Positions 603 through 62,298 of a stretch of 64,000 bases of DNA are shown piece by piece (within the stretch, counting starts at the first letter, position 1; each line of letters starts with the position of its first letter). Both the position numbers and the translations under genes were made by a program. The DNA comes from Euglena gracilis (taxonomy: Eukaryota): contig CP154954.1 in NCBI GenBank assembly GCA_039621445.1, forward strand, positions 32,713,455 through 32,777,454, in the 5' to 3' direction. A model generated the notes under the pieces. That model saw nothing but the letters and a program-made list of their open reading frames with translations, was not told the origin of the DNA and did not search any database.

Positions 603-3600
603 ATGGAACTCACAATCCCTGAAGCATCTACAACTATTTGTGTCGGAAACCTTCCCGACTATATGAGCAGGAATCACTCTCCAGTGAGATTTCTTGCTCT
701 TTTTTTGATTGGTTCCTGTTGTAAACTGCTCGTGAATTCCGCCTTATGTTCAAATTCGCAAACGGTGTCCAACGGTGCATCATCAATCACACCAAGGCTG
801 GACACCAGGTTGGTTATGCAAGGTTTGGAACGGCACAAGAAGCACAAGCCGCCATTGAATGGCTTGCGCAGGGCTGCTGAAAATGATATGAAGTTTTATA
901 TGAAATTTTCAACCTGACAGCTTCCCTGATGCTCACGGATACCCGATTGACGAGGACTTCCCAAACACTTTGAAAGTTTTCATGTCTTCAACTCAATTGC
1001 GCGATGCCCTTCCTGGCACCCGACCAAAGCGCCCGCTGGACAATGGTTTTGGCGCACCTGCAGCGAAATTCCCACGTTTGGGGGGAGTGCACAGAATTTG
1101 ACAACTGTTCAAATGTGCTTGTGAGAGGCCCAGGTTTCTCTGAGCACTTTTTCTGATCTGCAAAGTGTGAGAACCATGAGGAAGTCAAATCAACCTGGAA
1201 CCTCACTAATGGAAATGAACCAGTTGTGATGTTGTTTGATTTTGGTTTTTGCTTGTTCAAAAAATCGGAAGAAACAAAGAAAATTTTGTTTTTGGCAGGG
1301 ACTCTATTCTTTGGACAACTTGTCTTTGGTAAACCGTCATTGTCAAAAAAAAGGACTTCGGTGCCCTGAGGTGCTTGGGCCACCTCTTCAACCAAGCCAC
1401 CTCGTTTCACCTCATGTCAAATTCTGAAATGCCTTTTGCTGCAGCTCCTGGGTTCATTGGTGGCCGTGGTTTTGGCAAAGGTGTTGGAAAAGGCCGTGGG
1501 AAAGGTGGTGCACAGGCTGAATTTCAAGGCAATGCCGACCGGGGGTTCCTGCCAGGCTGTATTTTAGTCGGGTGCCGACCCCACCCCGGGGGGGGGGGGG
1601 CAGGCACTCCAAGGGGTACTTGTCTGTTAGTCGATCCACGGCAGTGCATCAAGTCTGTTAGTCGATCCACACCCTATTCAACCCTATTCAATAGGAATGA
1701 CCACTTTCAGTGCAAAACAGGATGTGTGACGTCATAATTTGACCATGTGACGTCATACACAAGCAAAATGATGACCGTATGACGTCATACTTGAATGTGT
1801 GACCCAGGGATGACGTCATAAGGTCCAAATCAGCTGCATATTTGACGTCATCAAAGCATAGGGGAAGAAAGGGTGTGGATCGAGTCGTTTTGCCGTGGAT
1901 CGACTAACAGACAAGTACCCTCCAAGGCCCCCCTGATCCGACCGTAGGGCACATGGCCAAAAGTGCCCTGGCACAACCCCGGCGCCGGGGAGCCAAAAAT
2001 GGCCTATCCTCAAAGGAATGTGCCTGGGCACAGACCGAAATCCGACCCCCCCCGGGGGGGTAGTGCCCAGGATTTGATATAAGGAGGGCGTACATGGTTT
2101 AGGTGGGGGGGGGTGTCCCCCACCCCCCACCCCTCCTGGCCCGCAGGGGGGGCCGGACCACCCCACCTGCCTGGGGGGTCCGGACCGACCCTGGGGACCC
2201 GGGACCCCTCCCCAAAAGGGTCATTTTTTCCTCCGGCACTTTGCGTCGAAAATTTTTGCATTTTTGGCAAATTTTTGCCCACAGAGTCCCAAAATGGCAC
2301 TTTTGGTCGTTTTGGGGGGTCAAAAATTGGTACTTGTCTGTTATCGTACGACATACCCCCCCCTTTTGGTTATGGTACGACGCCCTTTGAACGGCCAGAA
2401 TGCTTTCCCTTGGGGTCTGTTTCAGCCCTTTTGGGTGGTTTTTGGGGTTATTTGAAGGGGGATAGGGTTAGGGTTTCGAATGGCCCTGCCGTACCCCTTG
2501 GAACACACAAGGGGAAACCCCAAAGGCGGCAGACTGGCAGGGAGAAAGAAAGATAAAGCCCGCCGACCCTTCCGGCCCCAAAGGGGGATTTGCCATCCTG
2601 AACAGGCATTTTGCCCAAATTTGGCCGGATTCCAAAAAAAGGCTGAAACCGTGTTTGGGCCGATTTCGAGACTTTAAAAGTCTTAAATCTTCGCCCAAAA
2701 CACGGTTTCAAACAAGAACAGTGTTTTGGGCCAAGGTTTTAGGGGGGCCCAGGGGCGACCACGGCGCCTTTGGCGCCGCGGTCCCCGCCCCTGGGCTCCC
2801 CCTAACTCTTGGCCCAAACACAGTTCTTGACACAGAAACTTCACCAGGATGGGTCCTTACCCTAACCCCATTCCTCCCAATAACCCTATATAGGCACCGG
2901 AGGAGGAAATGAAGGCGTCGTACCATAACCAAAAGGGGGGGGTATGTCGTACGATAACAGACAAGTACCCAAAAATTTTCGGTCACCCAGACCGAGCCAC
3001 TGTTTAGGTGGGGGGGTGTCCCCCCCCCCCTCCTGGCCCAGGGGGGTCCGGACCCCCCCCCCCACCGTCCTTATATCAACCCTGGTAGTGCCTGCCTGAG
3101 CAGGCACTCTGGACCAGGGTTGGTAAAAAAAACAGCATTTTGGGCACTTTTTGGCCCACGACCTGGCAGGCACTGCCCCCCCCCCACCTGCCTAAATCAC
3201 TCCCAGACCCCCTCCCCCAATTTCAATTTCAGCCTGGTGGTGTAGCCTCCAGCCCCTCATCCGTTTATGTTGGAGGTGTACCCCATGACTGGGATGAGCC
3301 CAGGGAAGTGCCAAGTGTTTCCAGAGCACAGACGCAGCATACTTCCAACACACCCCACCATCCGTTACTTGGGGGGTCAGGCCCAGGCAATTGCTTAAGC
3401 ACTGACCAACCAACCCCCCCCCCCCCCCCGGGGTGGGTGACTGGTTTTTTCAAAGTGACTGACTGGTTTTGGGGTCGGCCAGGAGTGGGCAAAAGTGGCT
3501 TGAGTGACCCCGGCGCCAAAGGCGCCGGAAAATTTTTTTGGGCCTTAACTGGTCTAAAGTGACTGGAAAGTGGCCGTTTTTCTGAGTGGCCGACCCCCCC

Positions 3601-6600
3601 CGCCCCGGGTGACTGGCTGGTTTTTTGAAAATGAGTGACTGACTGGTTTTTAAAAAAGTGGAGTGACCCCCCCCCCCCGGGGTCGGTAAGCAATTGTATG
3701 GTCAGGCCGATCAAGATCTTCTCATGCAAAAGCAAAAATCTTCGGTCCCAACCTGCCTTTTGAGCCAAGCCCAATTGCCCGGAGAAACCAACCCACCCAA
3801 AAGGGGGGGTCCGCACCCCTCCAGTCCCGGAGAGTGACACCCCCGCTTAAGAGAGAGTGACACCCCATCCAGGCCCTGGGGGGGGGGGTGGGTGCTGGGG
3901 TTTTCAGTGTGACTGACTGGTTTTTGGCCCGGACCCCTCCCCCGGGGGGGGTTGGCAAAAAAACCACAAAACTGACCCAGCCGGAAATTTTTTTTGCAAT
4001 TTTTTTCATGTTTTGGGCCAAGTTTCCCTTGGATTCCAGAGTGACCGACCCCCCCCCCCCCCCGGGGGGGGGTCGTGGCTGACTAGCTTCCCGAAAAAAG
4101 TGACTGAAGGATGGCCAAAACGCGCACCCTAACAAAATCCCTTTGTGTGTGCACCCAGATGAACTTACCCTCACCCCCCCCCCCCTATTTGGCCCCTCCC
4201 CTAATTGGCTTATTGGGGTCCCGTTGGATGGTCCATTAGCCAATTAGGGGGGGGGTCAGGCTTATTGGCCATTGGCCGGGGTAACCCCCCCCCTAATTGT
4301 CCCCCCCCCCTAATTGGGGGTCCGAAGGAGCCCGGCCATTAGCCAAATAGAGGGGGGGGTGAGGGTAATGAAGGTGTCTGGTAGGTAAAATAGCCCCTCT
4401 GTATGTTCCACAGGGTTTGGCCAAGGGTTTTTATGCTTCTGAAATGGAAAACCATGGAGGTCGTTTCCACCGACCATATGGTCCGGCCAACCATGGTCGG
4501 CCCGACCTATTGTCAAAAGTCCTTTGAAAAGGGGGGGGTAATGCGGTTCATTGGCTACCACCTCCCTCCCCCCTAATTGAACCCCCCCCCAAATGACCAA
4601 ATGCCCCGGGGAAATTTTTTTCTACACACAAATTGTGGCTGAGCCCAGATTTCAGCCTGAAAACGTGTTCAGCCAGGGGGCCCCCCGAAGGGAATTAAGA
4701 AGTCAGACCTTGTGTCAAGAACTGTGTTTGGGCCAAGAGTTAGGGGGAGCCCAGGGGCGGGGACCGCGGCGCCGAAGGCGCCGCGGTCGCCCCTGAGCCC
4801 CCCTAAAACCTTGGCCCAAAACACTGTTCTTGTTTGAAACCGTGTTTTGGGCGAAGATTTAAGACTTTTAAAGTCTTGAAATCGGCCCAAACACGGTTTC
4901 AAAATGGGGCCTGATTTTGGCCCTAATTTGAATCAAATTTAGGCCTGGCAACCCTGATAACCCTAAAATTTCCGCCTTGGAAAATATAAAAAAATTCAGA
5001 TGGCGGCCCCATGCCGAACAAGTACCACTGACCCCCCTTAGGACCGACTTTCCGGGTTTCTGGGACCCCCCAAATGGTCAAATTTTCCTTTCCGGCGCCT
5101 TGCACCAACTTTTTTGGCATTTTTGGCAACTTTGCCAAAACAGAATTCCCGGCTCCGTGCGGATTTCCGGTGGTTGCCGTCGTGGTGGTCGGGCCGACCA
5201 TGGTCGGCCCGACCTGTGGTGGTGGTCGACCGACCTGTGGTGGTCGGGCCGACCAGGTCGGGCCGACCACCATTTTTTTGCACTACCCCCCCCCTTTTTT
5301 GCATTTTTAAGCCCCCCCCCCCCTGGTCGGTGGGTGGTCGGTGGCTGGTCGGTGGGCATAAAAATGGTCTGTGAAGGCCCCAAATCACCCGGAAATGCAC
5401 TTATGGCCAGTTCTCCCCCCCCAGGACCATGCCCTGGGGGGGTCCTGGGGGGGGGGTCTGGGGGGGTCCTGGGGGGACCTGGGGGGGACCTGGGGGAGTC
5501 CTTTGGAGGGTGCTGGGGGGGTGCTGGGGGGGTCCTTGGTGGGTCCCGCATTTTTTGGCAGAAATTTTGCAGCACAAGTTCAGGTTATTCTAAAGTGGGT
5601 ACCGCCCCCCGGTGGGTCCTGGGGGGGTCGTAGGGGGAAACTGGCCATGACTCTCACGAGAGGCAGAAAACTCCCCCGTCCACCCGATCCGAAGTTTTCT
5701 TTCAGGGGGGGTTTAAAAGTCGGCAGTTGACTCAGTAGCACAGAGTGGGTAGTTTGCCGACTAGTCGGCCAACTGGCCCCCCCCCCCTGTCTCACCGACT
5801 AGCTTAGGCGGCCAATTAGGACAGTGTTTTTTGCCACCAGTGGCATAAATTTACGCTGTGTTGTGCAGGTGGCTTTTTCAGGCATTTTAATTTTCTAGTT
5901 GTTAAGTTTTACTGGAAGTTTGCTTTCCTAATGCTCCTGTGAAATTGTTCTCTCTAGTGCAGCCCTCAGATTTGTCCACGGTTTCTTGCATGACATTGAT
6001 GTTTGCTTGTTGGAAGGTGTGCCCTGTGTGAAGTAGTTCTGGATGTCGTTCTGATTTATGTCGCTTGTATGCTGAAATTGGGGTGTTTTGCCATACATTC
6101 TGTTGTTTTTTGATTGGATTTTTGTCCAGGTGTAATTGCTTGTGGTCAATTTTTTTGTTCCTGATGCGACACTGCCAACGCCCTCTTTTTTTCAAGGAAC
6201 GTGTGCGTTGCTTGCGGTTCGCTCGCATGTTGTTTGTGAATGTCATTATATTTGATGGTGTTTCTTACAGTTGATGAATTTCTCTTTGTTTCTGTGGGGA
6301 CAGTGTTGCTTTTTTGATTTGATTTGAATTTCACCTGCTTCAGTTCTTTTATGTGTTTCTGAAAGAGAGTTGTTCCACTGGTGGCGTAATTGAGCACTTT
6401 TTGAAGCACAAATTACTGTTTTATGCCACTAGTGGCATAAAACAGTAATTTGTGCTTCAAATGTACCCTTTTTTGAGACTCCTCTTCTGTGTGCTTGGTG
6501 GATGCTGTTTTAGGGTGTGATCCCCGTGTCCCCCCCCGTGTCCCCCCCCCGTGTCCCCCCCGTGTCCCGCACTTCAGGGGGGTCCCTAGAAGGCGGCCAA

Positions 6601-9600
6601 GGCAACATGCAGCATGAATTTTTAGCCGTTTGGCATCATTTTCTACTTTTTTTTCATGGATTCTCAAGGCCATTTTGACTTCCCCCCACCCACAATCCCT
6701 TTTTTTTCACCTAGGATGGTATGGAGCTTGGCTCGGGGTCAATGTGAAATGAATTTTTGGTCCCTCAAAAAGTCACAAATTTCGTCCCGGAAGGTCCCGA
6801 AAACAGGCATGTTTCCCCCGTGTCCCCCCCCCGTGTCCCCCCCCGTGTCCCCCCCGTGTCCCGCCCCACCCCCTTACAGTTACATACCTGAAAAGGCTTA
6901 TTTTTTGGTCAACAGCTGATTGTTTTTGCCACTAGTGTCAAAAGGCGCTCTGAATGTCTGATGACGTGTCTAATTCTACTTTTCTGCCATTTGTGTCATA
7001 AAAAAGGAACGTGATCTGAAATGAAGTGTATGTTTGTATATGTTTGCGTTCGTATGAATGAAGCCAGTGACGTGCGGTTTCCTTGCCGGAATGCATTCAT
7101 CTTCGTTTTCTACCTTGCAGGTGTGGTTCAAGACCAGAAGTCGTTTGAAGCCCATCCACTAGCACGCCCCCGAGAGGAACGCAGCCATTCTCTGATTCTG
7201 CCCAAGTGGTGTTCCCGTGACATGCGCACTGAACGTGAGTGGTGAGTGTTGTCCCCCCTCCATGAAACCCCTCCATTAATTTGGAAAAGAATGGCTGCGT
7301 GGGCCGAAATGTGACAGCATGTTTCTGTGCGCCTGTGTGTGTGCACGTTGCTGTCCCAATGGAGGGAAAGGGAAGGACTCAAGGGACACTCAAAGGGACT
7401 GCTGAAGACGACCGTCAGGAATTTCTCTGTGCCACATGCTTCGCAGACAGACTGAAGGTTGGGATTCCAATGCAACCTTCCGTGTGCGTGGATTTGACAC
7501 AAATTTCTATTTTGAATACTGCGCCACCCCCCCCCCCCTTTCACACACCGCCAAAAGGAGGCCCAAGGTGAATGTGACGATAATCCACTGAGCCTCAATA
7601 CCATTTAGGCAATTTGCAAGACCCACTCCATCAGTCAGGTTTTGTCCGCATTCAACAATCAGTCCAGCGTTGCCAAGGACAATATATTGCCTGTGTGATA
7701 TGATCATCTGGGATGATGGGACTGGGGAATTTTTTGGATGGTTCAGAATGTCCATGCACAGATGGATAATGGGAGAACACATTTTGGAGAGCAATCCGGA
7801 GCCTCATGCAAAAACACCAGTGTATGCACTCTTCATTACCATGTGCGCTCGCCAGTTTTTCATTCTTCCTTTCCATCACAGCTTCCAATCCCCCTCCGCA
7901 TGTTCGCTGGGACGCATTGCACCAAGTGCAGATGATCAAGGTATGCTCTGGTCCATGGAAACAGAGTGAGCAGTGTCCTATGACCTGAAATTTCCCTTCC
8001 TGGGTACATTTTTAGAGGCCTGGAGCAAGATGCATACTGGCGTGTAAAATCCCATTTCATGGGAAAAATGATGCCCACACAGAAGGGTGCAACAAGGACG
8101 TACACACGAAACATGTCACGCACATCGTCCACAGAGCGCTTGTGAGTCAAAAACTTTATGCCACTAGTGGCATAAAGTTTTGTCCTAATTGGCCGCCTAA
8201 GACTAGCTGCCGACTAGGCCAACCGACCAATTGGCGTCGTCGGTCGGCCAAACCCTAACCCTAACCAATTGGCTAGTCAGCCGACTAGTCGGCCGACTAG
8301 CCAGCCCCCCCTTCCAGCCTGCCACCAAACAGTTGAATGGTCGATCGACCAGCTGAAGGGTCGGTGACTGATGCGTGAAAAAGTGGTGCCTGCAGGGGAC
8401 CAGCTACCCCAAAGAGGCGCCCAACTAGGGTTAATACACATTGGGGGACCCTCGCTCGGCGCCTTTGGCGCCTCGCTCGGGTCCCCCAATGTTTTTAACC
8501 CTAGTTGGGCGCCTCTTTGGGTTCGCTGGGTCCCCTGCAGACACCAGTTTAACGACGTTGAGGGGATGGGATGGGACAGTTAGGGATGGAAACTTGACCC
8601 TAACCCTACTCCTTTAAATAACGTCATCAATTTTTCAAGTTCTGAATTGCAGCGGCCTTCGGCCGCTGCGCGGGCTTCGGCCTTCGGCCGATGCACGGCC
8701 TTCGGCCAGGCGGCCTTCGGGGCGCATGGCGGTAGATTGGCAGGGGGGGGGTAGTCGGTCGACTAATGGTCGGTAGCTAGTTGGCGAGACGGGGTGGGGG
8801 GGTATTGGGTTGTTGGCCGACTGGTTGGTCTGAATTGCAGCGGCCTTCGGCCGTTGCGGTGGCCCTCGGCCGCTGCGCGGCCTTCGACCAGGAGGCCTTC
8901 GTGGCGCATGGCAGTAGACTGGGGGGTGGGGGGGGGAGTCGGCCGACTAATGGTCGGTAGCTAGTGGGCGAGACGGGGTGAGGGGGGGAGTCGGCCGACT
9001 AATGGTCGGTAGCTAGTGGGCGAGACGGGGTGGGCAGGGATGGATGGGAAGCCCTTCGGTATTGAGGTAGGTGGTAGGGGGGGGTCCCGACCACCCCCCC
9101 CCCCCTAGGGGGGTAAGGGGGGAGGGGGGGGGCACGGACCACCCCCCCCCCCCCCTAGTTGTTGGGAGGGGGGGTCCGGATCCCCCCGCCCCCCCCTCCT
9201 TTACAGGTGCCAAAAATAGCAGAAAATTTTCTTCCGGCGCTGCGCGCCGGAAAATGAGCAAAAACACCCCTTTTTGCTGACTTTTGGACATATTGCCCTT
9301 TTTTTGATGTGTTGGTGTTTTCCCCAAAAAAATTGTTCAAAAATTTCAAAAAACGAGCATTTTTGGATCGATTTTCAAAGAAAAATCAGGGATTTTTGAC
9401 CGATTTTGACCCGATTTCCGGCCCTTTGCCCGTCCATGAAATCGAAAAATTTTCGGCCCCCCCTCAGTTTCGAGGTAGGAGGGGGGGGTCCGACCCACCC
9501 CCCCCCCCCTCCGTGTCGGGAGGGGGGGGTCCGACCCACCCCCCCCCCCTCAAGGCTTCCCATCCATCCCTGGGGGTGGGGGGGTATTGGGTAGTCTGAC

Positions 9601-12600
9601 TACCCACTCTAATATACTAACGGGTCAGTACCGCCGACATTTGAAGAAAATCCCATGCAAACAAGTCGGTGGCTGGTCGGTGGTTATAAACATGGTCTGT
9701 GGCGGGCCCAAATCACCCGGAAATGGTCCGGATGGGTCCAAATAAGTGTCTTACGCCTAAATAAACACCCCCAGATGGAAATCTTTGGTCGGTGGGGGGT
9801 CAGTGGACCCTTGATGGGGGTCCGGAGGGGTAAAAAAACAATGATGAAACAGGGATTACATGAAAATCCTTTAGAAATGCAAGCAATGTGCATCACGAGA
9901 GGCAGGAAACTCCTCCCTCCACCCCCATCCGAACGTCAAATAACAAAATCCCTTCTGAGTTGGCAACATGCTCGGGGGATAAGTAGTTTTTGTGGCTCAC
10001 TTTTTCATAGGCGGGGGGGGGGGCTCCGCCCCCCCCCCCCCCGCACCCCCCCCCTCAAATAACAAAATCCCCTCTATGTTGGCAACATACTTGGAGGGCT
10101 AAATCCTTTTTGTGCAAAATTTTGCAATTATATTGAAAATCCGATGGGGAGTGGTGTTCTTTTGCCAAAAGTGGCCCAAAATGGGCATTTCCCCCCCCAA
10201 GTTTTTGCATATTCACCCCGATTGGTGGGTTCTGGAGTCATTTAAGTGGGTTTTGACTGGTTTTGGGGTGATTTGGACAAAAAAAAATTTCAGGGGGGGG
10301 GGCGTAAATTTCCAGAAGGGGGGGGGTAGTGCAAAAAAATGGTGGTCGGGCCGACCAGGTCGAGGTCGGCCCGACCACCACAGGTCGAACATGGTCGGCC
10401 CGACCATTGGTCGGGCCGACCACCTGGTCGGGCCGACCATTTCGGGCCGACCACCACAGCGACCACCACCGGAAATCCGCTCGGGGCCACATTGGCCAGA
10501 ATTCCCCAAATAATACTCCCAGGATATTTTGGTCCACCAAAGTCCTCCCGAAGGGGGAAGGGGGGGGGTATTTGGCGAAAATTTTCGTATTTGTATGTTT
10601 GGTTGTGAAATGCAAATGGCAAAATTATCCTTAAACCCCCCATAGTCCCCCTGGCTTTATATGTAAATTTTTTTCGTTGTTTTGGATGATAATATTCATC
10701 AAGTTTCTACTTGGCCTCCCAGGGGGGGGGGGGGGCAAGTAGAATGTCCAGGGGGCTCCGCAAAAATTTTGGGTGTTTGGAGTTCGGCCCAACTTTAGGC
10801 CTTACTCAAAGAGGGTTAGGTGTAAAAGTTAGGCCGAACTCCTAACCCAAACCCTACTCCATCAGTAGCGCAAAAATGTTTTTGACCCCCTGGCTGGGGC
10901 AAGTGGAATCTTGTTGCCGATTATTTATCAAAGGCATTTACAAGGTTTGGCAATTTGATTAATGTCGCAATGGTGCTCCTTGTGATATTTGGGAATTTCC
11001 AAATTGTTTCATTATAAAACAATGTCAACGGAAGGCTGGCAGGTGTGATGGACACATGGCACCCATTTCCAACAACCAAGCGGAGATTCAAAGTGGCTCT
11101 TCTCTTCAATTGACTGCCCTCCAGTCCCTGTTTGAAGGATTTGGAACAATCACCAAAGTGCAGCTCACTCGTGGAAGCAACCCAGTTGGGAACACCCAGG
11201 GATGTTTGCAGTGGAGGCTGTTTCTCATCGATTCCATTGATAGGGAAAAGGTAATGACCCATTCTGTAACAACTGAGCGTTATACGCTTGCACTGCTCAA
11301 GAGACCTCGATGACGATTGAGGTTTTTCAAGTTGTTGGTTCACAATCATCGCAAATGAAAGATGTGGTTGACTGAAAATGTCGTTGTGACATTCCAAGGA
11401 GGAACCTGCTGCAGCAATGCAAAAGTGTGCTATCGAGTGAAGGCTTTTCTAAACTCAGAAGACCCCCGGCGGGGTCACAGACCAGAAATTTTTTTTAAGT
11501 TTCATGACCCGGTGGATGGGTCCCGGCTGAACCCCCTGGGGGGGTGGGGGAAGGGCGAGTGGGAACCATGCCCCCCAGGGATGATGGGAAGCCCTTCGGT
11601 ATTGAGGTAGGTGGTAGGGGGGGGGTCCCGACCACCCCCCCCCCCCTAGGGGGGTAAGGTGGTAGGGGGGGGTCCGGACCACCCCCCCCCCCCTAGATGT
11701 TGGGAGGGGGGGTCCGGACCCCCCCACCCCCCCTCCTTGACAGGTGCCAAAAATAGCAGAAAATTTTCTTCCGGCGCGCAAAATGAGCAAAAACACCCCT
11801 TTTTGCTGACTTTTGGACATATTGCCCTTTTTTGATGTGTTGGTGTTTTCCCCCAAAAAATTGTTCAAAAAAATTCAAAAAATGAGCATTTTTGGATCGA
11901 TTTTCAAAGAAAAATCAGGGATTTTTGACCGATTTTGACCCGATTTCCGGCCCTTTGCCCGTCCATGAAATCGAAAAATTTTCGGCCCCCCCTCAGTTTC
12001 GAGGTAGGAGGGGGGGGGGTCCGACCCACCCCCCCCCCCCCGTGTCGCGAGGGGGGGGGTCCGACCCACCCCCCCCCCCCCTCCGTGTCGGGGGGGGTCC
12101 GACCCACCCCCCCCCCCTCAAGGCTTCCCATCCATCCCTGATGCCCCCCCGAGCTATTCCCATGGGGCGGGCGGGATTAGGTCACTGTCATAGCACTTTT
12201 TATGAAGAAAGTCCAAAAAGTGCAGTCCAAAAAAGCGCAGGCCAAAATTGACGTTTTTTTGGACGTTTTCAAAAAGCACTTTTTGTCAAAAGTGCTCAAT
12301 ATTGACCATTTGGAATAGCTCGGGGGAGTATGGTGCCCCGCTGGAGGCAGGGTTTTCTTCTATTCGCGCCGATGTTTTTTTCGGACCCCAAAATTGACCA
12401 CAAAGGTGCCCCCCCCCCCCCCCGGAAGCCGAGTGTTTTGGTCCAGACCCCCCCCCCCCCGCTGGGTCCTAAAAAACCCTCTGACACAGATGGGCTGGAG
12501 GCGTTTCGGTTTTCAGTGCGAAGTGCCGAAGAGAAATGCAAAAGAAACCTCATTTCCACCTCGGCTCACAGCGCCGGAGGAAATTTTTTCCCAGTCTGGG

Positions 12601-12961
12601 GGTCCCCCGGGGTCTAACTAGTCCATTTTTTCCAGTGTCCAGCAAAATGGCTAGCCACTGGATCCACTGAGTTCCTCAAGAAATGGCCTGTTCACAACAG
12701 GCGACATTTCCATGATGGTTTACTGGCCAAAAACCACAAAGCCTGCTGCTTGCTTTACCTGCCGAATTTGTCACTGTCAGTCGATTTTTGTTCAGAATCA
12801 GGCACCTGGACACTGAAGCCTGCATCTCTGATGCCATTGCATTCATCCACTTCACAACCCCAGAGGAGGCCCAAGGCGCCATCCAGAGCATGAACAACTA
12901 CCCGCTGGATGAAACCCGTCACCTCGTGGTGCGGGGCAACACCAGCAGCCCACGTATCTAG
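603..12961 (+). CDS. Two-RRM RNA-binding protein with Gly/Arg-rich linker, paralog A (7 exons)
   Basis: Exons 603-664, 724-873, 918-1088, ~1431-1509, 3242-3297, 11112-11193, 12836-12961. Protein: MELTIPEASTTICVGNLPDYITAREFRLMFKF..GHQVGYARFGTAQEAQAAIEWL..GGRGFGKGVGKGRGKGG..SVYVGGVPHDWDETALQSLFEGFGTITKVQLTRGSNPVGNIAFIHFTTPEEAQGAIQSMNNYPLDETRHLVVR..TAG. Two sets of RNP2/RNP1-like motifs; colinear with paralog B. Confidence 0.9.
665..723 (+). other. Nonconventional intron, position shared by both RRM paralogs (B: 16912-16991)
   Basis: A: gagCAGGAA...TTCCTGttgta. B: atcCAATGG...CCATTGcccac. Both give AT|A (Ile) in frame. Confidence 0.88.
1615..1919. mobile_element. Merlin-like MITE
   Basis: TIR GGTACTTGTCTGTTAGTCGATCCACGGCA; 8-bp TSD ctccaagg; internal TGACGTCA repeats. 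Confidence 0.8.
2068..3084. mobile_element. hAT-like MITE family 2, interrupted by 2329-2969
   Basis: Ends CAGGATTTGATATAAGGA / TCCTTATATCAACCCTG; TSD gtagtgcc. Confidence 0.88.
2329..2969. mobile_element. Merlin-like MITE with ~55-bp TIR
   Basis: TIR begins GGTACTTGTCTGTTATCGTACGACATACCC; TSD caaaaatt. Confidence 0.85.
3384..3700. mobile_element. hAT-like MITE family 3
   Basis: CAGGCAATTGCTTA...TAAGCAATTGTATG; TSD gtcaggcc; internal GTGACTGACTGG repeats. Confidence 0.88.
4470..5790. repeat. Element built of TGGTCGGGCCGACCA palindromes; related inverted sequence at ~9590-10530
   Basis: 5140-5300 is the reverse complement of ~10315-10510. Ends not defined. Confidence 0.6.
5803..8201. mobile_element. 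TIR element with 5-bp TSD, superfamily unassigned
   Basis: 21-bp TIR CTTAGGCGGCCAATTAGGACA; TSD actag; repeated palindrome TTATGCCACTAGTGGCATAA. Confidence 0.8.
9035..9572. mobile_element. hAT-like MITE family 1
   Basis: TIR CAGGGATGGATGGGAAGCC; TSD ggggtggg. An empty version of the site is visible at ~8786-8809. Confidence 0.9.
11194..12835 (+). other. Nonconventional intron absent from paralog B
   Basis: accCAGGGATG...CATCTCTGatgcc; joins GN|IAFIHF in frame. Confidence 0.85.
11576..12140. mobile_element. hAT-like MITE family 1
   Basis: Same body and TIR; TSD atgccccc. Confidence 0.9.
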
Positions 12962-14912
12962 GCACCAGCTTGTTTTTGGCTTGCTTCTCTTGAATGGTGG
13001 AGGGAGCATAAAGAAACTCAACTTGTGGAGATCTGTTTGCCCAAAAGACATTTTTTTTCAGCCCAGAAACATGTCCGCCCACATAAAATATTTCACTGCA
13101 TCCTGGCAGACCCCCTTTGAGGGAGGGGGCTGGACTGCAACTGGCAAAAATTGGCCAGTGGACTTTCTTGTGAACCCCTGGACAGCCAGTGAAAAAAAAC
13201 CACCATTTTTTAAACCGAAACCTTCCTTAAGGGTCAGGGGTCATGGGGGATATGTGCCAAAAAAATTGCGAAAATGCCAAAAGTAGCACCCTTTTAAAAA
13301 AAGTTCGGCGCCTTCAGCACCGAAAAGTAACCCCCCCCCCTCCCACTTATACCCCCCCCCCCCTACTTATAAACCCCCCTCGGGCCGACCAACCAAACCG
13401 GGACTTATAACCCCCCCCCCCCCGGGGAAGAAAAACGAAAGCCACCAGGGACAATTTTTTTCGGACGCAAACCACTAAAAGTTGATTTTTTGGCAGTTTT
13501 TTTTGAGACCAACCATCTTCAAAAATGCCATTTTTGTCCAAATTTGGCAAAAATTGTCAATTTGGGGGGGGGTTTCGGGGTCATTTTTTGGGGGTCGGAT
13601 TTTCACCAACAATTCCGGGACTTAAACCCGCCCCACTTATAACCCCCCCTTCGGCCGACCAACCAAACCGGATCCATTAAACTTCGGGGGGTTTATCAGT
13701 GGGGGGGGGGTTATATCCCACCCCCAGACCCGCCTGCCCTGCCTGCCCCCCGGGGGGGGGGTCCAAGGCTAAAAAAAAACCCCTGCTTCCGGCACTTTGC
13801 ACCAGGCGCACAACTTCAGATATGTGCCCCCCCAGGCACCCTGAAAAAGTCTTTTTGGTCCACTTTGAAAGCTTTATCTGCAAGCCGGCATAGGTCACTG
13901 CTTGGGGGGCATACCCAGAAAAAGGCATGGATACTTGAACTTTGAGGAGACACCAAATCTGAAGGAAATATACGACAGTTTGGCCTTTTTGGCAGGTTGG
14001 ACCAACCTCGGGGAAAAGTGAGTGGTCCCCCGGACCCCCTCCGGGGCGCCCCGCCAAGGGGGGGGGTGGAGGGGACCCCTCCCCCCGATCTTTTAAAAAA
14101 CCCCTGGCCGGAAGCAGGGCACCTCCCAAGGTACTTTGGAAAATGGATGGACAGTTCCCTTCCTCTGTTCCCCCTCGTATTTTAAAGAGAAGCCTGCTCC
14201 TCTCCTCTGCATTGCAAAGCACTCAAATTGAGACGCCATAGCACAAAGCCAAGAATTATGATCAAGGTATTTCACATATGCAAGCGACGGAGGTTGTATT
14301 CTGCCAAAGATACCTCTGAAACTCAATCGAGACCGTGATGTTACTTTTGTTTTCAGTTTCCTTCCTCGTCTGGGAAGCCCAAAGAAAAACCATGTGGGAT
14401 TTGACGCATGTTGATGGCAAAAGGGTCACTCTCAAACCCATTTGATTTCCTCTGCATGATGTCTTTTTCTCGCGGAAAGCATTGTTCAAATTTCATCAAT
14501 GGGAGTAGAAAGTGAAAACATTATTTCCAGTCAAAAAGAAAGCGAAGCTTTCGTTGGGGGACAGTGTTTTTTGGTTTAAAACGCTGTTGTTAAGTTCTCC
14601 ATCCATTCATTTTTTTTGAGATGTATCTTTTCAATGGCTGCAGTCACCACTTGCCGCAACTGGTGCTGCACGCCATCCCGAACCCTTCTGAACTCCCTCT
14701 TTCCTCCGTTCGTTTGCTGTGCGTTTTAGGCCACAATTATCGCCTGATGCCTGAAGAAGGCCTCACTGTTCGGACGCACCATCACTGATGAAGGCGACGG
14801 CTCACAGGCACCACCGTCGATCCTCTCACCCCTTTGTTTTGTGCAGTTCGCATTGCTTCGCGCGAGGTCCAGGGATGAACAGGTTTCCCATGGTTGGCAG
14901 GTTGGCGGGCTT

Positions 14913-15358
14913 CAGGCTTTTGCTTAAGGGATTGCAGTACCCCCCCGGGGGGGGGGGGGCTGGACTGCAGCTAGTCCAAATTTGGCTAGTGGGTTTTCTA
15001 GCAGACCCCCCCCGGGGGGGGGGGTCTGCTAGCAGGGCTAGCTAGTGGAAATTTTTTTTTCCAGTGACCGGCGCGAAGCGCCGAAAATTTTTTTGGGGAC
15101 CCCCAAAAATGGCCAAAAATGCCCGTTTTTGGCCATTTTTGGGAATTTTTGGAACAAAATCAGCCAAAAACCTGTTAAAAACCTCATTTTTCCTCCGGCG
15201 CGCAGCGCCGGAGGAAAATTTTTTTTCCAGTCCGGGGGGGCCCCAGGCCCCCCCCCCCCGGGGGGAGGGGGGGGTCTAGCTAGTCGACTTTTTCCAGTGT
15301 CTAGCCGATTGGCTAGCCAGTACCCCCCCCCCCCGGGGGGTCCTTAAGCAAAAGCCTG
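14913..15358. mobile_element. hAT-like MITE family 4
   Basis: TIR CAGGCTTTTGCTTAAGG; TSD gcgggctt; internal CTAG repeats. Confidence 0.9.
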
Positions 15359-15404
15359 GCGGGCTTTCACCAGGCATCCGGGCTTTCGGGGGGGTAGTCC
15401 AACC

Positions 15405-15770
15405 CAGGCAATTGCTTAAGCACTGACCAACCCCCCCCCCCCCCCCGGGGGGGTGGGTGACTGGTTTTTTCAGAGTGACTGACTGGTTTTGGGCCCGGAC
15501 CCCCTCCCCCCCCCCCCCGGGGGGGGTCGGCCAGGAGTGGGCAAAAGTGGCTTGAGTGACCCCGGCGCCAAAGGCGCCGGAAAAATTTTTTGGGTCTAAA
15601 ATGGCCTAAAGTGACTGGAAAGTGGCCGTTTTTCTGAGTGGCCGACCCCCCCCCCCCCCCCCCGGGGGGAGTGACTGGCTGGTTTTTTGAAAATGAGTGA
15701 CTGACTGGTTTTTAAAAAAGTGGAGTGACCGCCCCTCCCCCCCCCCCCGCGGTCGGTAAGCAATTGTATG
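15405..15770. mobile_element. hAT-like MITE family 3
   Basis: Same ends and body; TSD gtccaacc. Confidence 0.88.
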
Positions 15771-16855
15771 GTCCAACCACAACCCCTTTGACCGGAGGGG
15801 TCTGAACCCCCCCGGGTATTAGGTGAACAGTAGGGGGTCTGCTATGGGTAGGGTATCCCATTGTTTCAGGACCACACCACCCCAGGGGAGTGGCCAGGGC
15901 AGAACGGGAAACGGCCAAACAGCCAGGGTGGTGGGTGGGGGGGTTTGAAGCAAAAAAATGCCATTGAAAATCCAAAAAATTTCCCAGAGAAAAAATGTCC
16001 ATAAAATTTGACTGTGCCAAATTTTGGTCCACTTTTTTGACCTTCGTTTCACCCCCCTCCTAAGAATACCAATTTTTAACCCTGAAAATTTTGAGTTTTT
16101 TGTGAAAAAATGTGGTTTTCCATCAAAAAGTCATGTGTTTTGGGTTCATTTTTCAAAAAAAAATCAAAAAATTTTCCGGCCAAAATCCTTATTTTCCCGA
16201 AATCGGTGAAGATGCTGTGGTGGGTGGGGGGCAGGGATTTTTTTTAAGTTTGGACCCCGGGGGGGGGGTCGGGTGGGTGGGTCCGCCGGACCCCCTCCCC
16301 CCCCAGGGGGGGGGTCCCCCCCCCCGGTCTTAAAAAAAACCCCTGGTGGGGGGTGGACCCCCCACTCCACCAGGCCTTCCCGTTCTGCCCTGGAAGTGGC
16401 TGACTGGTTTTTTCGGAGTGACTGACTGGTTTTTGGCTCTAGACCCCCCCCCCCGGAGGTGGGGTTTGGCCAAAATCCTTTTTTGAAAAGTGAATGACTG
16501 GCTTTTTGAAAGTAGAAAGTGACCCCCCCCTTGGGGGTCGGCAACCAATGGTATGGTGTGGACCTCCCCCCACCCCCCTCCTCGGCAGGTTCCAAAAATA
16601 GCAAATAGGGCTTTCGTATTTAGTGAGCCTTGTTGCATACCCCCCCCCCGTCCCGTGGTCCAATCCCCTCCTCCCCAGCCTTCCCCCCACAGCTCTGTCC
16701 CGCTCTCCTCGTTTGACTGGAGAACTCCCCCCTGTTCATCCTTTCCAGTGGGTCGTCAAAAAACGCCCTGATTAGCACACTTCAAAAGCTTTTATTCAAC
16801 ACGGTTTCAGTTGCATTTCCACCCTCATTTGCTCTCACAGGTACGCAACAATATT

Positions 16856-44000: not shown

Positions 44001-47000
44001 TCAAAATGAAGAAAAAAAAGATGATGGGGACCTGCATTGGCAGACAGGTCAGCACCACGGAAGTGGGGCTGCAGCAGCCATGGGAACCTGAATTCCTGAA
44101 GCCCGGGTGAGTGCCATCTTGCGTTTGTCTGTAAATTTTTCATCTTACAAATTTGTGTTTCACAACTTTTATTATACGTTGCACCAAGGAGAATTTGTGT
44201 ATCACACATGTATCACCAAAAATTTTTTAATGTATCACATATGTATCACCCAAAAAAAATTAATGTATCACATACGTATCACCAAAAAAAAATTAATGTA
44301 TCACAGATACGTTGTGATACGCACTAAATGGCGGTCTGTTGCGCGTATGCGCAAATTAACGAAAATTTTATTTCGGCTCTGGGGTGTCCGATAATATGGC
44401 GAGATGCGCAAAAATCCGTTTTTTTTGATGGTGTTACTCCGGGAACTTGCCAAAAAATTGTGTTTTTGGAGGGTCCGGAAATGGGCTGCACACATCGAAA
44501 CCCCCGGGACCACTCCCCCCCCCCCCCGAGTGAAAGCGAGAAGGCTGGGAAAGGCTTGAGTTTTTTCCGCCATTGATAGCTTGGTTGTGTACACCATCAG
44601 TGGTCAAGTTGCTCATATTCCCTCATGGGCTTTGCATTCCAAGAGGGGCCGCAAGCAACTGAGATTTGCCTGAATGCAGAACGCTGCATTTTTGCAGGCA
44701 GCCTCCCGGCAAGAATCCTATTTTGGATTTGGATTCGTTTGCGCGGTTTTGTGGCGGAATGGGAAGGGTGGTCCCACAATGGAATGGGAAGGGGGTTTTG
44801 TTGCGCATTTGGGCTGGCCATGGGCTGGTTTGAAGAAATCATTTTGTTTCCCTGGAGTTGGCCTGTTGTTGCCGAGATTTTATGGTTGCATTTTTGTTTG
44901 GAGAATATTTTGCCAGATTTTTAATTTAAGGCATTTGTAGGTTTTTGGTGTGCCTCAAAGATGATGCCCGTCAACCCCACGGCACTCCCAATCCCGATAA
45001 GCCACAGCCAACAGTGCCCTAGCACAGACACCAGCGCCAAAGGCGCGGGGGTGCCAAAATGGCCTATTTTCAAAGGAGTGTGCCTGGGCGCAGGCCGAAA
45101 TCCGACCCTCCCCCGTGGGGGGTGGTGGCTGCCTGGGCAGGCTCCACATGGCTCTCCGGACCCCCCCCCCTCACCCCCCCCCCAGGTTGGTAAAAAAAAC
45201 AGCCTGATCTGTAGCAGGCTTTTGCTTAAGGGATTGCAGTACCCCCGGGCAGGCACCTACGGCCGACCAGGGCCGACCATGGCCGACCAGGGCCGACTAT
45301 GGTTTTCAGGACCCCCGTAGGTGGGGGTTCCGACCAGGGCCGATTTGCATGCGGTTGGCCGACCGAAGGGGAATGGATGAAGGAATTCGGCAGCTTTCCC
45401 TCTGTAACAAGCACCTCTGATGATGCTGGGCGATGCAGGGCGATGCTGGGTGATGCTGGATTTTTGGAGACAGAGGTGGGGTTCCAATGCTTTTTTTTTG
45501 GATGGCTGAAGTGGGGTCCATATTTGGGCCTATACTGCTGGGTACACCCTCCCTCCCCCGCAGACCACTCCAGCATGCCTTTCATGTCTGCCCATGCCTC
45601 TGCCTCTGCTGCCGTGCTGGACCTCTCTGTCCCCCTCCGGGAGGTGTGTGACTCCCCTGGAGCCGAAGGTATCGTGCCCCTGCTGCATACCTGCGTACAG
45701 ACTCCACATTGGTGCTTGCTTCGTACCTGAGTCGACGATGTTCGTCCCTGGCTCGTCTGGCCTTCCTTGAGTGACTCCCTGGCGTGGATGCTTTGGTGGG
45801 AGAGGGAGGTTATGGGGGGAATCTTAAGTTGTGGGATAAACGGGGCGACTGTAGTTGCGGTTGTAGGCATGTACATGATCATGTGCATCCGTGGATGCTT
45901 GTAAGGCATGTGAATCCGAGAATGCGCATGTGCGCATGTGTAGGGTGCGCATACTGCGCTTTTGGAAGGATTGGCATCCAACGAGCCGCGAATTTAATGC
46001 ACAAAGTCGCGAGTTGGATGTCGAGGAAGGTTGGTTGGAGGCCAAGAAGCGGGACCCCCGGGAAGTGTAACCCCCGAAGGCTTTTGCTGACTAGCCTCTC
46101 CTTCAGTGGAGGAAGCTGCGTGGTCGGGAGAAGCACGACTGGCATGCTGCTGCTGGAGAGGCAGCGGTGGGACCGGCTGGAGGAGTTGTTGGTGCTGGAG
46201 GGTGAGGTGGTCGTGTTTGCAGTACCCTTCCAGTGCCCCTGCTGTATTTTGTGTGCCTGAATTTTGGTCTTCGGTTATAGGGTATTATTGGATGGCTCTA
46301 GGGTGATGCAGGGCGATGCAGGGCGAGGATGGGTGACCGAAGGTGCTTGCCAATGGAGGCTTTATGGGGCATTTCCTTTTGATCTTGGCGAGACAATTCA
46401 GAAAATCATCGCATCCCTTCACATTTTTTCTGTGGCGGATACCCCCACCTATGGCCGACTATTTGCCGACCAGGGCCGACCAGGGCCGACCAGAGCACCA
46501 AAATGGGAAGTGACCATAGGTGCCTGCCCCCGGGGGGGTGGCTGGACTAGCTAGTCCAAATTTGGCTAGTGAGATTTCTAGCAGACCCCCCCCCCTGGGG
46601 GGGATCTGCTAGCAGGGCTAGCTAGTGGAAAACTTTTTCCTGTGACCGGCGCAAAGCGCCGGAATTTTTTTTGGGACCCCCCAAAATGGCCAAAAATGGG
46701 AATTCTCGGAACAAAATCAGCCAAAAACCTATTAAAAACGTCATTTCCACCTCGGCGTGCAGTGCCGGAGGAAAATTTTTTATCCAGTTGGGGGGACCCC
46801 CCAGGGGGGTCTAGCTAGTCCATTTTTTCCAGTGTCTAGCCGATTGGCTAGGAAGTCCCCCCCCCCCCCCGGGTCTTTAAACAAAAGCCTGATCCGTAGT
46901 GATGATCAAAAGCCAAGGAAGTTTGGGCTTGTAAAATGCTGTTTGGAGGAGAGGATTAATTTTGTTGATTTTGATCCGGAGCTCTGCAATGACAACCCTC

Positions 47001-51858: not shown

Positions 51859-51890
<32 letters not shown>

Positions 51891-54800
51891 TTTTTTTGTT
51901 TTTGGGGTTGTTGTTGTCAGGCAAGAACCCTCTTTTGGATGAGTCGGTTGTGTGGTGCTGTGGTGAGTTGAGTGAGTCGAACCCACTCATCTGGCGTTGC
52001 CTGGTTCAGACACCCAACCACAGCCTTGGCCCATCCAGGCAAGCAGAGGTTGAGAATTGAATGGTCCGAGGTTTTTTTGGAAAAAATCCCTGCAGTGGTC
52101 AAAAGGACAACAAAATTGGGGATTGTGAGTTTCTGACAGAAGGCAGCTTGGAGGGGAGGATTAACCATTTTGATATTGATCCGGAGCTTTGCAATGACAC
52201 CCATCGGCTCGATTGGATGACCCCCACAAGTGTGCCACTCTGCGCTGGCAGCAACGGGCTGATCATCTCCGCAAGGTGGGGAACGGTTTGCGGATTGACA
52301 TACACAGGGGCGGGAACTGGAATTAGTGTGCATTTTGATTTGTTTGAGAATTTGAACTGCAGGGGACATGAATGCGAGGGACGGACGGAAGGCAATTGAC
52401 ACAGGGAAGGGCAAGCGGGAACCAGCTTTGGCAATGCATCTCCACTGCACCAAATTGTAAATTGTTGAGATGTCAACTGTAAAAGGTTGTAATCTTATTG
52501 AAATCTTATTACAATCAATGTAAGTTGTTATAAAGGGAAAGGAAAGTACATACGCCAGTTGTGTTTGCTCATTGCGTTTTGGGGCCAGAGGATGGATGTG
52601 AATCTCGTTGAACCGAACACATTGTGAAGGAGATGGCTTGGATTGCTGACCGCCAGTTGGGGAGGTTTGTTAGTTGTTGAGAAGGGAAGGGAAGGGAAAA
52701 GTTTGCATGATGCACATCATATTTCTCAACACCAGAGTTCACACTGTGATGGCACAATGATTCCCCTGGCTGATCAGCATCCGTCCCTCCAGGGGCACAG
52801 AAAACGGGTGTGGCGGCCATTGACGGCTGCCAGTGTGGTGGGAGGGAGGATTAGCTTTGCTGTTTGGCCCGGAGCTCTGCAATGACACCCATAGGCTCGA
52901 TTGGATGACCTCCACCGGCAGCCACGGCCCCTCCTCCTGAATGGCAAGCACGCTGGACTGGCGGGAATGCTGTTTTGGATAATGATTTGTTTGTGTGTGG
53001 TGCTGTGGTGGGTTGGGTGCAGGCACCTATAGCTAAAATGGCCTAAAATGATTTTTTGACCCCCTATAGGTGGGGGTCCCTAAAATGGCCTAAAATGGCC
53101 TAAAATGGCCTAAAATGGGAAAATTTTTGTTGCACAACAATTTTTTTTGGTGAACAACTGAAGCCATTCAGGTAATGACTTTCAGTGCCTTTTGTTAATG
53201 TGGACGGCAAACAGTGGATTTGGTGGAGGAGTACAGCCCCACAAGGCCCCAGAAAAAAACGTAAAAGAGGTTGGAAAAATCTCAATTGAAATAAAAAAAT
53301 ACAAGTATTATTATAAATACAAGTATTAAAATACAAGTATTATCATAAATATTTATAAATTTAACATAAATTTTCTAAGGAAATTTAAATATTTTTTTAT
53401 GAATGGACATTTTATTATCATAGAAATTCTATATGTTTAATATGGATATTTAATGTGGGTATTTTATTATTATATAATATATATATGTAGATATATAATG
53501 TGAGTAATTTTATTATATCAATTTTTAATGTAATATTTTATAATACAAACAACACATGCTTTTAAACAATTTTAGTAATAATATATGCATATATAATGTA
53601 TATTTAGTAAAAAAGAGTACTGATACAATATGTAATTGTTAATAGTAACTATTATGACCATTGTAAATCATATTATTAATAAATTTGAGTGTGATAAAAT
53701 ATATGAATATGATAAAATTGAATATGATAGAATATAAAATATGTTATTGGTAAATAGGCGATTTTTTTTATGAAAGATAATAATACTATTTTTATTATTA
53801 TTACAGAATTTACAGAAGTATTTTTTTTATGAATTAGTTATATCAAATGATATATATTATGGTGTTTGGGTGTTGTTAGTGTATTATTATCTCCTGTTTA
53901 TAACTTGTTCAGAGGGTTTTGTTTTCATTTCTTTCTTTCCTTTTCTTTTCAGTATTTCCCCATTTTTCCCCAAAGGGGAAAACAAACACGGAGAAGAGGA
54001 ATTGATCTCAGCGTTGCCTTTTGATATCTGCCATCCTCTCCCAAATGGCTAAAACAATGACAAAATCAAATTGAATTTCCCAGGCGACATCATGATCATT
54101 CAAAAAAAATGACATCTTGTTGCGAAATCCCGCAAAATGGTATAGATTTAACAAAATACAAAAAAACCGGGAGCCCTTCTGGCAGTGCAAATAAAACTTT
54201 TAATATTTGTTCAACGTTTTTTTTTCTGAAAATTTTTCATTGCCGTAAATTCTTGCTGTTCAGAATTCCTGTATGGGAATGAATTAAGATTTGTTGAGTT
54301 TCCCATGGTTTTGATCCAGTGTTCATGAATTTTGCATGCTTTTTTGGATTACATTTGTTATTTCTGAATAAGAGAAGGTTTGCACACATTATAACACAGT
54401 TTTCGGGACAAAAATGACGAAAAATTATGGTTTTCAGAACCCCCACCTATACCTTAAAATGGCCTAAAATGGCCCAGTGGCCTAAAATGGCCTTAAATGG
54501 CCTAAAATGGCCTAAAATGGCCTAAAATGGCCTAAAAGGAGGAAATTTTTGGGCTTGATTATAGGTGCCTGGTTGGGTGGGCTCAACCCAGCAACCCTGG
54601 TTTTGCCGGGGGGGGGGCTCAATTTAGGCAGCAGCATTCTCATTTCATCTTTTTGTGTTGGTTTGCGCGTATGCGCAAATTAACGAAAATTTTATTTCGG
54701 CTCTGGGGTGTCCGATAATATGGCGACATGTGCAAAAATACGTTTTTTTTGATGGTGTTACTCCGGGAACTTGCCAAAAAATTGTGTTTTTGGAGGGTCC

Positions 54801-62298: not shown

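Follow-up and report, generated by a model that had tools for sequence, protein, structure and literature searches.

The nonconventional introns of euglenids, whose origin and removal have been in question for about 30 years, probably descend from transposable elements of hAT-like structure that duplicate 8 bp of their target, with the nonconventional cut restoring the empty site. We reach this reading from a stretch of 64,000 nucleotides of Euglena gracilis (contig CP154954.1, positions 32,713,455 to 32,777,454 of the forward strand), called the window below and numbered from its own first letter throughout. Within it two paralogous genes, A and B, carry nonconventional introns that are mostly cut 3 nt before a CAG and 5 nt after a paired CTG, and the non-coding DNA around them holds several families of MITEs, miniature inverted-repeat transposable elements, that likewise have CAG...CTG ends and are flanked by target-site duplications (TSDs) of 8 bp. 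Three letters, a CAG...CTG element and five further letters amount to the element plus 8 nt, and the arithmetic proposed in an earlier sequence-only reading of this DNA, that cuts at the 3/5 offsets take out the element together with 8 nt, holds. The evidence consists of the free elements and their duplications, the RNA junctions and their geometry, the removal of the introns at the RNA level, and decayed direct repeats, in the predicted register, at introns that only one of the two paralogs has.

Nonconventional introns in two paralogous genes

Gene A (590..14832, + strand) encodes a two-RRM protein of 233 aa when spliced, and its paralog gene B (16840 to past 22051, + strand) has a spliced open reading frame (ORF) of 236 aa, likewise for a two-RRM protein. 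Identity between the two mRNAs is 75%, and Pfam matches RRM_1 (E=3.5e-7) in one of the gene B exons. Both transcripts come from the + strand according to the stranded RNA run X24. They begin at trans-splice acceptors at 590 and 16840, where 301 and 462 reads of run X21, respectively, carry the extra letters ATTTTTTTTC, which we take to be the 3' end of the Euglena spliced leader; because of this presumed match we read the window as euglenid nuclear DNA. The 3' end of gene A lies near 14832, with molecule ends clustered at 14829-14832.

RNA junction evidence covers window positions 1-20000, and the rest of 603-62298 was read through protein homology alone. The sources are the raw runs X21 and X24 (two studies with the same species label) and the 2015 contig run X1, three studies in all, and the junction set is the best 15 of 1485 joints in that part of the window. 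These 15 represent 13 distinct RNA introns, one variant of intron A6 caused by a single-nucleotide polymorphism, and one joint exclusive to the run X17; there is no back-joint among them. Every one of the 13 introns is present in X21 (236 to 1294 reads) and in X24 (42 to 111 reads), and 11 of them also in X1 contigs, whereas none is found in X17, the contigs of which run from exon into intron with no splicing. We infer that X17 is DNA and, on that footing, that the 13 introns are present in the DNA and removed at the RNA level.

None of the 13 RNA introns has GT-AG borders. The sequence-only reading had described about a dozen such introns, with cuts 3 nt ahead of a CAR and 5 nt past its paired YTG (R, purine; Y, pyrimidine), and the RNA bears this out. 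Scored within the placement ambiguity of each joint (0-7 nt), CAR stands at +4..+6 in 12 of 13 introns, compared with 6.2% of random pseudo-introns of the same length, and YTG at -8..-6 in 10 of 13, compared with 8.0%; both occur at one placement in nine introns (eight CAG/CTG, one CAA/TTG) and in 0.35% of the pseudo-introns. A purine begins the intron in 11 of 12 cases and the next exon in 10 of 12. All four short introns that were folded have a terminal stem, starting at +2 to +4 in A1, B1 and B6 and at +1 in A2, with Z values of -1.35 to -3.26.

Three intron positions are common to the two genes, all introns being on the + strand. Intron A1 (665..723, 59 nt) is an unambiguous N3-CAG...CTG-N5 intron with a stem of z -2.9, its joint 664>724 being supported by 821 X21 and 62 X24 reads and an X1 contig; its counterpart B1 (16912..16991, 80 nt) reads N3-CAA...TTG-N5. 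A2 (866..933, 68 nt), which shows 3+5 at slide 1, corresponds to B3 (17958..18323, 366 nt), which fits 3+5 with unambiguous placement. A5 (3298..11111, 7814 nt), with N3-CAG at its 5' end and CTT-N5 at its 3' end, contains the MITEs 3384-3700 and 9035-9572 and shares its position with B5 (19176..19567, 392 nt), which fits 3+5.

Six introns are specific to one paralog, and the alignment of the spliced A and B proteins has no gap at the sites of five of them (A4, A6, B2, B4 and B6). A3 (1089..1430, 342 nt) has perfect 12-nt CAG...CTG ends (1092-1426) and comprises the element plus 7 nt, not 8. A4 (1510..3241, 1732 nt; joint 1503>3236 with 7 nt of ambiguity) consists of an element at 1513-3236 whose ends match at 12 of 14 letters and whose flanking 8-mers, GTGGTGCA and GTGGTGTA, agree at 7 of 8; nested insertions have enlarged this element from roughly 120 nt to 1724 nt. 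A6 (11194..12835, 1642 nt) fits 3+5 and contains the MITE 11576-12140. In gene B, B2 (17059..17882, 824 nt) fits 3+5; B4 (18429..18975, 547 nt) has N3-CAG at its 5' end, CTT-N5 at its 3' end, and first 12 letters identical to the end of the MITE 34634-34938; and B6 (19635..19721, 87 nt) fits 3+5, its flanking 8-mers agreeing at 5 of 8 letters.

Both paralogs also have an intron after the stop codon. That of gene A, A7 (12966..14262, 1297 nt), lies directly 3' of the stop codon in the 3' untranslated region and shows neither 3+5 nor GT-AG. That of gene B, B7 (19863..22050, 2188 nt, + strand), is a conventional GC-AG intron, recognised from a loose end behind 19862 (589 X21 reads) that matches uniquely at 22051; the 5' site of A7 lies 4 nt further on and fits no rule. 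Conventional and nonconventional introns coexist in the window, as published for Euglena.

Second alleles, making up about 65-75% of RNA reads, appear at 612, 14642, 14685 and 17031 and at the joint 11192>12836, which reflects a synonymous change at the A6 junction and shows an extra T. At 10026-10054 and 17715-17733 lie long C runs where numerous RNA reads fit only in part and end in loose poly-C; the probable cause is the way low-complexity sequence is mapped.

Free elements with CAG...CTG ends and 8-bp duplications

In an unbiased scan, all exact 10-nt inverted-repeat pairs 50-3000 bp apart were collected and their exact flank duplications measured; the lengths (2 nt, 147 cases; 3, 10; 4, 2; 5, 6; 7, 4; 8, 9; 10, 3; 12, 2) show a secondary peak at 8, and two of the three 10-nt cases are 8-bp TSDs with ambiguous C/G end letters. 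A directed scan for CA..TG ends with terminal inverted repeats (TIRs) matching at at least 10 of 12 letters and abutting 8-mers agreeing at at least 7 of 8 gave 18 matches; with the 8-mer windows displaced outwards by 1 to 6 nt, it gave 3, 1, 2, 3, 3 and 0. Removal of two tandem duplicates (55510-57206 and 55545-56841) and addition of three copies missed by the filter (9035-9572, with a low-complexity TSD, and 11576-12140 and 2068-3084, with indels in their ends) leaves 19 independent non-coding elements with CAG...CTG ends, in about nine families by end sequence, with a TSD that is exact over 8 bp in 14 and matches at 7 of 8 positions in five. The earlier count of more than 15 MITE copies from several families with 8-bp TSDs was therefore correct, the displaced controls yielding 0-3. 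Because copies of one family carry different TSDs, the TSDs derive from the target.

Family 1 is represented by copies at 9035..9572 (TSD GGGGTGGG), 11576..12140 (ATGCCCCC), 34262..34975 (7/8) and 37030..37557 (GGGCCACA), all features listed in this paragraph being given on the + strand and every TSD spelled out being 8/8. To family 2 belong 2068..3084 (GTAGTGCC), which is interrupted by an element at 2329-2969, 23509..23902 (GCCATGGG) and 35363..35750 (ATGGGGTT), which lies within the first intron of a third gene, C; to family 3, 3384..3700 (GTCAGGCC), 15405..15770 (GTCCAACC) and a 69-bp derivative at 23982..24050 (GTTGGGGC). Family 4 comprises 14913..15358 (GCGGGCTT, TIR 12/12) and 45215..46891 (TSD 7/8; the tandem duplicate is 55510-57206). 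Family 5 is found at 34634..34938 (GGTCCGAC, TIR 12/12), nested within the family-1 copy 34262-34975, and family 6 at 45250..46526 (CCCCCGGG; tandem duplicate 55545-56841), nested within the family-4 copy 45215-46891; a family-6-like element occupies 53020..54571 (TIR 12/12, GTTGGGTG). Further MITEs stand at 15895..16392 (TIR 12/12, TSD 7/8), at 28738..29662 (TSD 7/8), a related copy of which is nested in intron A4, and at 43433..44338 (CAGACC ends, TTGCGCGT).

Among the 17 elements checked (all but 2068-3084 and 11576-12140), 13 have the published CDG/CH'G core in both orientations. A purine stands at TSD position 6, which would be the first exon letter, in 13 of 17 elements, in agreement with the published purine rule. 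The summed X17 depth is about 3e5-5e5 in the bins 14675-16008, which contain three MITEs, versus 50-135 in four mostly exonic, MITE-free bins, a rough sign that suggests very many genomic copies of these MITEs. A paralogous empty site of MITE 43433-44338 was not found, its flank being unique, and two metagenome scans with MITE end stretches gave 0 loci.

Two observations concern family 1. The copies starting at 11576 and 37030 share about 44 nt of upstream flank, so that not every locus may be fully independent, and ARAGORN calls a tRNA-Ser(AGA) at 37104-37179, inside the latter copy, which may be a false call on the G/C hairpins there or a tRNA-like module of the element.

Relation between the splice offsets and the duplication

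The proposed mechanism starts from non-autonomous cut-and-paste elements with CAG(G)...(C)CTG ends, hAT-like by structure, that would insert with an 8-bp TSD. A nonconventional splicing activity would pair both ends in the pre-mRNA, with one cut 3 nt upstream of CAG and the other 5 nt downstream of CTG. While the insertion is fresh, each TSD copy would be split at the same point, after letter 5 and before letter 6; the element and 8 nt would leave, and the mRNA would be the uninterrupted target. Insertions into exons would be tolerated and become introns, after which the exonic halves of the TSD would stay constrained and the intronic halves decay, while further elements could nest inside and enlarge the intron. 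We infer, then, that insertions of this kind gave rise to the introns and that splicing would leave no scar while an insertion is fresh.

Relics of the duplication are observed at the predicted place. When the 8-mer preceding CAG is set against the 8-mer following CTG, the 13 introns together show agreement at 42 of 104 positions, compared with 26.1 +/- 4.6 for random pairs (p about 0.0008). The excess is confined to the paralog-specific introns: these six agree at 25 of 48 positions in the predicted register (p=5.6e-5), and the six introns at shared positions at 14 of 48 (p=0.31). For B6, the mRNA 8-mer GCTCCAAC is made up of the exonic halves of its two flanking 8-mers, and all three mismatches between these fall in the intronic halves. 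Outside the window, the published 8-nt direct repeats at a recently gained gapC intron of E. agilis (PMC4770533) also speak for the link. The sequence-only reading had expected excess identity to be highest in introns matching multicopy MITEs; in the window it lies at the paralog-specific introns. The arithmetic of the link is right, and in this window the paralog-specific repeats and A4 support it without yet proving it. A further claim, that the link explains the asymmetric consensus, is not supported: the TSD fixes only the sum of 8, not the 3/5 split, and by itself leaves the asymmetry without an explanation.

Evidence against descent from such elements

Several observations weigh against the descent of the introns from such insertions. 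The multicopy elements whose TSD is intact all sit in introns, other repeats or intergenic DNA, none of them flanked by exons in the window, and the best 15 of 1485 joints include no direct case of a MITE spliced as an intron; this absence says little, because only about 5% of the window is coding (our own estimate from exon coordinates). When the empty sites of 15 TSD-flanked elements were restored (13 of CAG type, including one tandem duplicate, and two GG-ended), no convincing coding frame ran across them. By BLAST, the interiors of 12 intron elements match the rest of the 64-kb window only through nested MITEs, and at least 8 end letters are shared with a MITE end in 4 of 24 intron ends as against 7.9% of other CAGG sites, which is not significant except for B4, the sole intron end to match a MITE family beyond CAGG (12 identical letters). 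Presence in one paralog may mean gain there, or loss in the other copy. Direct repeats have been reported at 84.4% of introns, the conventional type among them, so that their presence by itself lacks specificity, and the acceptor spacer is given in print as N5-6 rather than a fixed 5 (PMC12501133). The ruler is also inexact in the window itself. Junctions had been expected to follow the 3/5 offsets, and nine of the 13 do; A5 and B4 have CTT at the 3' end, A3 is the element plus 7 nt, and A7 does not fit.

Orientation is the remaining difficulty. Of 17 independent loci with copies or fragments of CAG type, 16 have the orientation of the family's reference copy (that of 23982-24050 being taken from its ends), on the same strand as all mapped genes, which without exception lie on the + strand. 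The two-sided chance of a 16:1 split, computed by hand, is about 3e-4; the split therefore argues against insertion in either orientation, and it contradicts the earlier proposal that a hAT insertion in either orientation makes a ready-made intron. The TSD letters are strand-asymmetric too (G at position 1 in 13 of 17, T at position 2 in 9, G at position 6 in 11), and in the 8-mers before the intron CAG, G is found at position 1 in 8 of 12 and a purine at position 6 in 11 of 12. Both the co-orientation and the non-palindromic composition are unlike what simple, symmetric cut-and-paste transposition predicts, and they suggest that selection acts in transcribed DNA or that transcription is in some way coupled to the process.

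Competing explanations

It is on the co-orientation of 16:1, with every mapped gene on the same strand, and on the strand-asymmetric TSD composition that an account with the direction reversed, or with a link through RNA, would build: the 'MITEs' would be mobilised nonconventional introns, or integration or survival would be tied to transcription, for example via the excised circle, full-length circular RNA excision having been published (cited in PMC11282704 and PMC12501133). We regard this as very unlikely. The copies of one family carry differing exact duplicates of local sequence, which needs a staggered cut in the target DNA, an RNA reverse reaction would presumably bring along the donor's 8 nt rather than duplicate the target, and selection in transcribed DNA can give co-orientation as well. 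Coincidence is a better contender, though still an unlikely one. It would have the 3/5 geometry stem from an RNA-processing enzyme unconnected with transposons, and the introns arise by other routes, for instance double-strand-break repair leaving short direct repeats or conversion of conventional introns, with MITEs that merely share the CAG ends common to many DNA transposons. It agrees with the lack in the window of any intact multicopy MITE as an exon-flanked intron and with intron ends that are mostly unrelated to the MITE families; the 8-nt repeat at a gapC intron was read by its authors as a mark of break repair (PMC4770533), conventional introns are also flanked by direct repeats (PMC12501133), and by our own reasoning the a-priori chance that two offsets of 0-10 sum to 8 is roughly 1 in 13. 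Yet the exact 8-nt register is enriched only at paralog-specific introns, A4 has inverted ends together with a 7/8 duplication, the free elements share the end motif and the purine at TSD position 6, and break repair fails to explain multicopy families with inverted ends and exact 8-bp duplications in non-coding DNA.

The class of the elements bears on a third account, in which the same model holds for elements that are not hAT, mobilised by another transposase with an 8-bp TSD, of Merlin or of an undescribed family; this is possible, if doubtful. Because no transposase was found, 'hAT' is a structural label only, based on the 8-bp TSD and the CAG ends, with partial agreement to the terminal motif YARNG: Pfam gave no transposase domain in 20 window ORFs, its other matches being RRM_1 in the gene B exon and one sub-threshold RPC4, and Rfam gave no match. 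Family 1 begins CAGGGATG, as had been read earlier, and its likeness to the maize Ac terminus is presumed, a literature search for that terminus having given nothing relevant. The earlier assignment to hAT thus stands as far as the TSD length and the CAG ends go, which are the classic hAT pair, and less well for YARNG, the hAT terminal motif (PMC3014272): among the 32 ends of 16 listed elements most begin CAG, and CAGGG-type ends agree with the motif in full, whereas CAGGC, CAGAC and CATAC fail at position 5. The TSDs do not follow the type nTnnnnAn of lizard hAT families (PMC3014272), A standing at position 7 in 3 of 17, although the T that 9 of 17 have at position 2 (p=0.016) speaks for hAT. 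Merlin is the sole DNA-transposon superfamily that we found reported in E. gracilis, with two families that have 8-bp TSDs; Merlin TIRs start GG and its TSDs are 8-9 bp (PMC8101967). A GG-ended family with 8-bp TSDs is present in the window and favours the non-hAT account; the CAG-type elements, however, begin CA, unlike Merlin.

This second family, with ends GGTACTTGTCTG, has copies at 1615-1919 and 2329-2969 with exact 8-bp TSDs CTCCAAGG and CAAAAATT, its GG ends and TSD length fitting the Merlin features reported for E. gracilis (PMC8101967). The copy 2329-2969 is inserted in a family-2 MITE, and X17 contigs of other genomic copies cross its empty site (loose ends at 2328; joint 2318>2970).

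Descent of the introns from hAT-like elements with an 8-bp TSD, the reading we prefer, could be part of something wider, which we put forward tentatively and as a possibility of low probability. Nonconventional splicing would have evolved together with a single lineage of 8-bp-TSD transposons, as a non-spliceosomal process dedicated to excising them precisely from RNA. Because both TSD copies would be cut at 5|6, the two junctions would obey one Y|R rule; the mRNA would be the empty site and the circle the element with one TSD, an RNA counterpart of the excised transposon. The 16:1 co-orientation and the strand-asymmetric target letters G1, T2 and G6 would then mean that insertion or survival is coupled to transcription. 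If descent from such elements is true, the odd 3/5 spacer rule gains a rationale, its sum being the insertion scar, and exon insertions are neutral by construction, which would account for such introns making up most introns of E. agilis. The outcome known from introners, a transposon that serves as a ready-made intron, would then be reached by a second route that does without the spliceosome. The published knock-in assay, and the genome and RNA data that already exist, would allow a direct test.

Other features of the window

The window has a G+C content of about 52% and is rich in short interspersed repeats and G/C runs. Gene C (35087 to past 63192, + strand) is Misato/DML1-like; its match P0001, which has the domain PF14881, shows 69-86% identity where the exons match best. 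An ortholog-guided junction search gave five GT-AG introns that begin GTGTGC or GTTCAC, and one candidate nonconventional intron, C5 (39117..39331, + strand; N3-CAG...CTG-N5), with a score of 136 as against a best score of 138. In the same search C1 fits 3+2, or 3+5 with a 1-aa deletion, and no settled junctions were obtained at 62270-63143. An in-frame insert of 69 nt at about 40500-40570 reads, by ortholog comparison only, either as CAG...YTG in an element-plus-7 arrangement or as no intron; with A3 (1089-1430), which is seen in RNA, it would make two cases in which the element plus 7 nt keeps the frame.

The GT-AG intron of gene C at 40746-62138 (21.4 kb) contains a whole tandem array (41550-60461) with units of roughly 2.5 kb. 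A motif of 82 nt, the + frame of which reads ...DIDPELCND..RLDW..., occurs in 15 copies across the array and at 28320, and a 112-aa ORF that spans it has no Pfam family. At 5804-8200 lies an A+T-richer segment of 2.4 kb, bounded by an inverted repeat of 20 nt without mismatch and by a duplication of 7 bp in its flanks, GACTAGC; three of its ORFs gave no Pfam match, and its X17 depth is far below that of the MITE-bearing bins.

Comparison with known systems

Much of the material for the proposed link is already in print: the 3/5 offsets, the idea of a MITE origin, TSD-like repeats, and an 8-nt repeat at a gained intron. Nonconventional introns make up 71.8% of those of E. agilis, their CAG standing 3 nt inside the intron and their CTG at -8, and knock-ins into an E. 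gracilis exon, exon 2 of EgGSL2, put the 3-nt and 5-nt spacers to the test, leading to the signature N3CDG-/-CH'GN5-6|R (PMC12501133); insertion into a reporter exon, which the sequence-only reading had suggested as a check, has in this way been published with natural and synthetic introns, though not with MITEs. The same paper, of 2025, calls the origin of the introns still 'unclear' and possibly MITE-like. A transposon origin, said earlier to have been suggested in general terms, is indeed in print (PMC3935182, PMC11282704): Milanowski et al. proposed a MITE-like origin in 2014, at a time when euglenids were without any identified transposable element (PMC3935182). A Y|R rule at both junctions has been described, as have 8-nt direct repeats flanking a strain-specific, recently gained gapC intron of E. 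agilis, which the authors read as break repair; strains were compared there for gapC intron 4 of strain ACOI 323 (PMC4770533). The CAG/CTG ends have been named TIRs and the junction repeats 'TSD-like' (PMC11282704; hAT, '8 bp' and '8-bp' are absent from its text), and excision of nonconventional introns as full-length circular RNA is cited both there and in PMC12501133. The relevant passages of PMC11170887, PMC12621601 and PMC7789003 hold no link between the 3+5 offsets and an 8-bp TSD. In the literature searched, which lay outside subscription papers and supplements, we found no relevant paper joining 'nonconventional intron' with hAT, no explicit equation of 3+5 with an 8-bp TSD, and no free MITE families with such ends.

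The introns of the window are members of the euglenid nonconventional class (PMC12501133, PMC3935182, PMC4770533), with which they share borders, CAG/CTG positions, paired ends, purines and removal from RNA, and they are no different from it; what is added here is the neighbouring, free, multicopy elements with the same ends and a TSD of 8 bp, equal to 3+5. With the MITE-origin hypothesis (PMC3935182, PMC11282704) our reading shares the idea itself, inverted ends as TIRs and repeats as TSD-like, to which the passages of those papers attach no superfamily, TSD length or connection between spacer and TSD. Non-autonomous hAT elements (PMC3014272) are alike in the 8-bp TSD and in short TIRs beginning CAG, and differ in that here only some families agree with YARNG, the TSD consensus is another one, and the window elements have no known transposase.

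The introner elements of Amoebophrya (PMC7789003) resemble the present case in being non-canonical introns with inverted repeats of 8-20 nt and direct repeats over the exon/intron boundaries, but their direct repeats are of 3-5 nt, they are strain-specific, a modified spliceosome is discussed for them, and the passages describe no fixed 3/5 rule. The closest parallel in outcome is with the introners of Micromonas and other algae, in which, as summarized in PMC11282704, a non-autonomous TIR element inserts into an exon and is spliced out together with one TSD copy, neutral to the frame. Theirs are spliceosomal GT/GC-AG introns that take one splice site from the element and the other from a 3-nt TSD (PMC11282704), whereas the introns of the window are non-GT-AG, their borders are set by distance from the paired ends, and the TSD is one of 8 bp.

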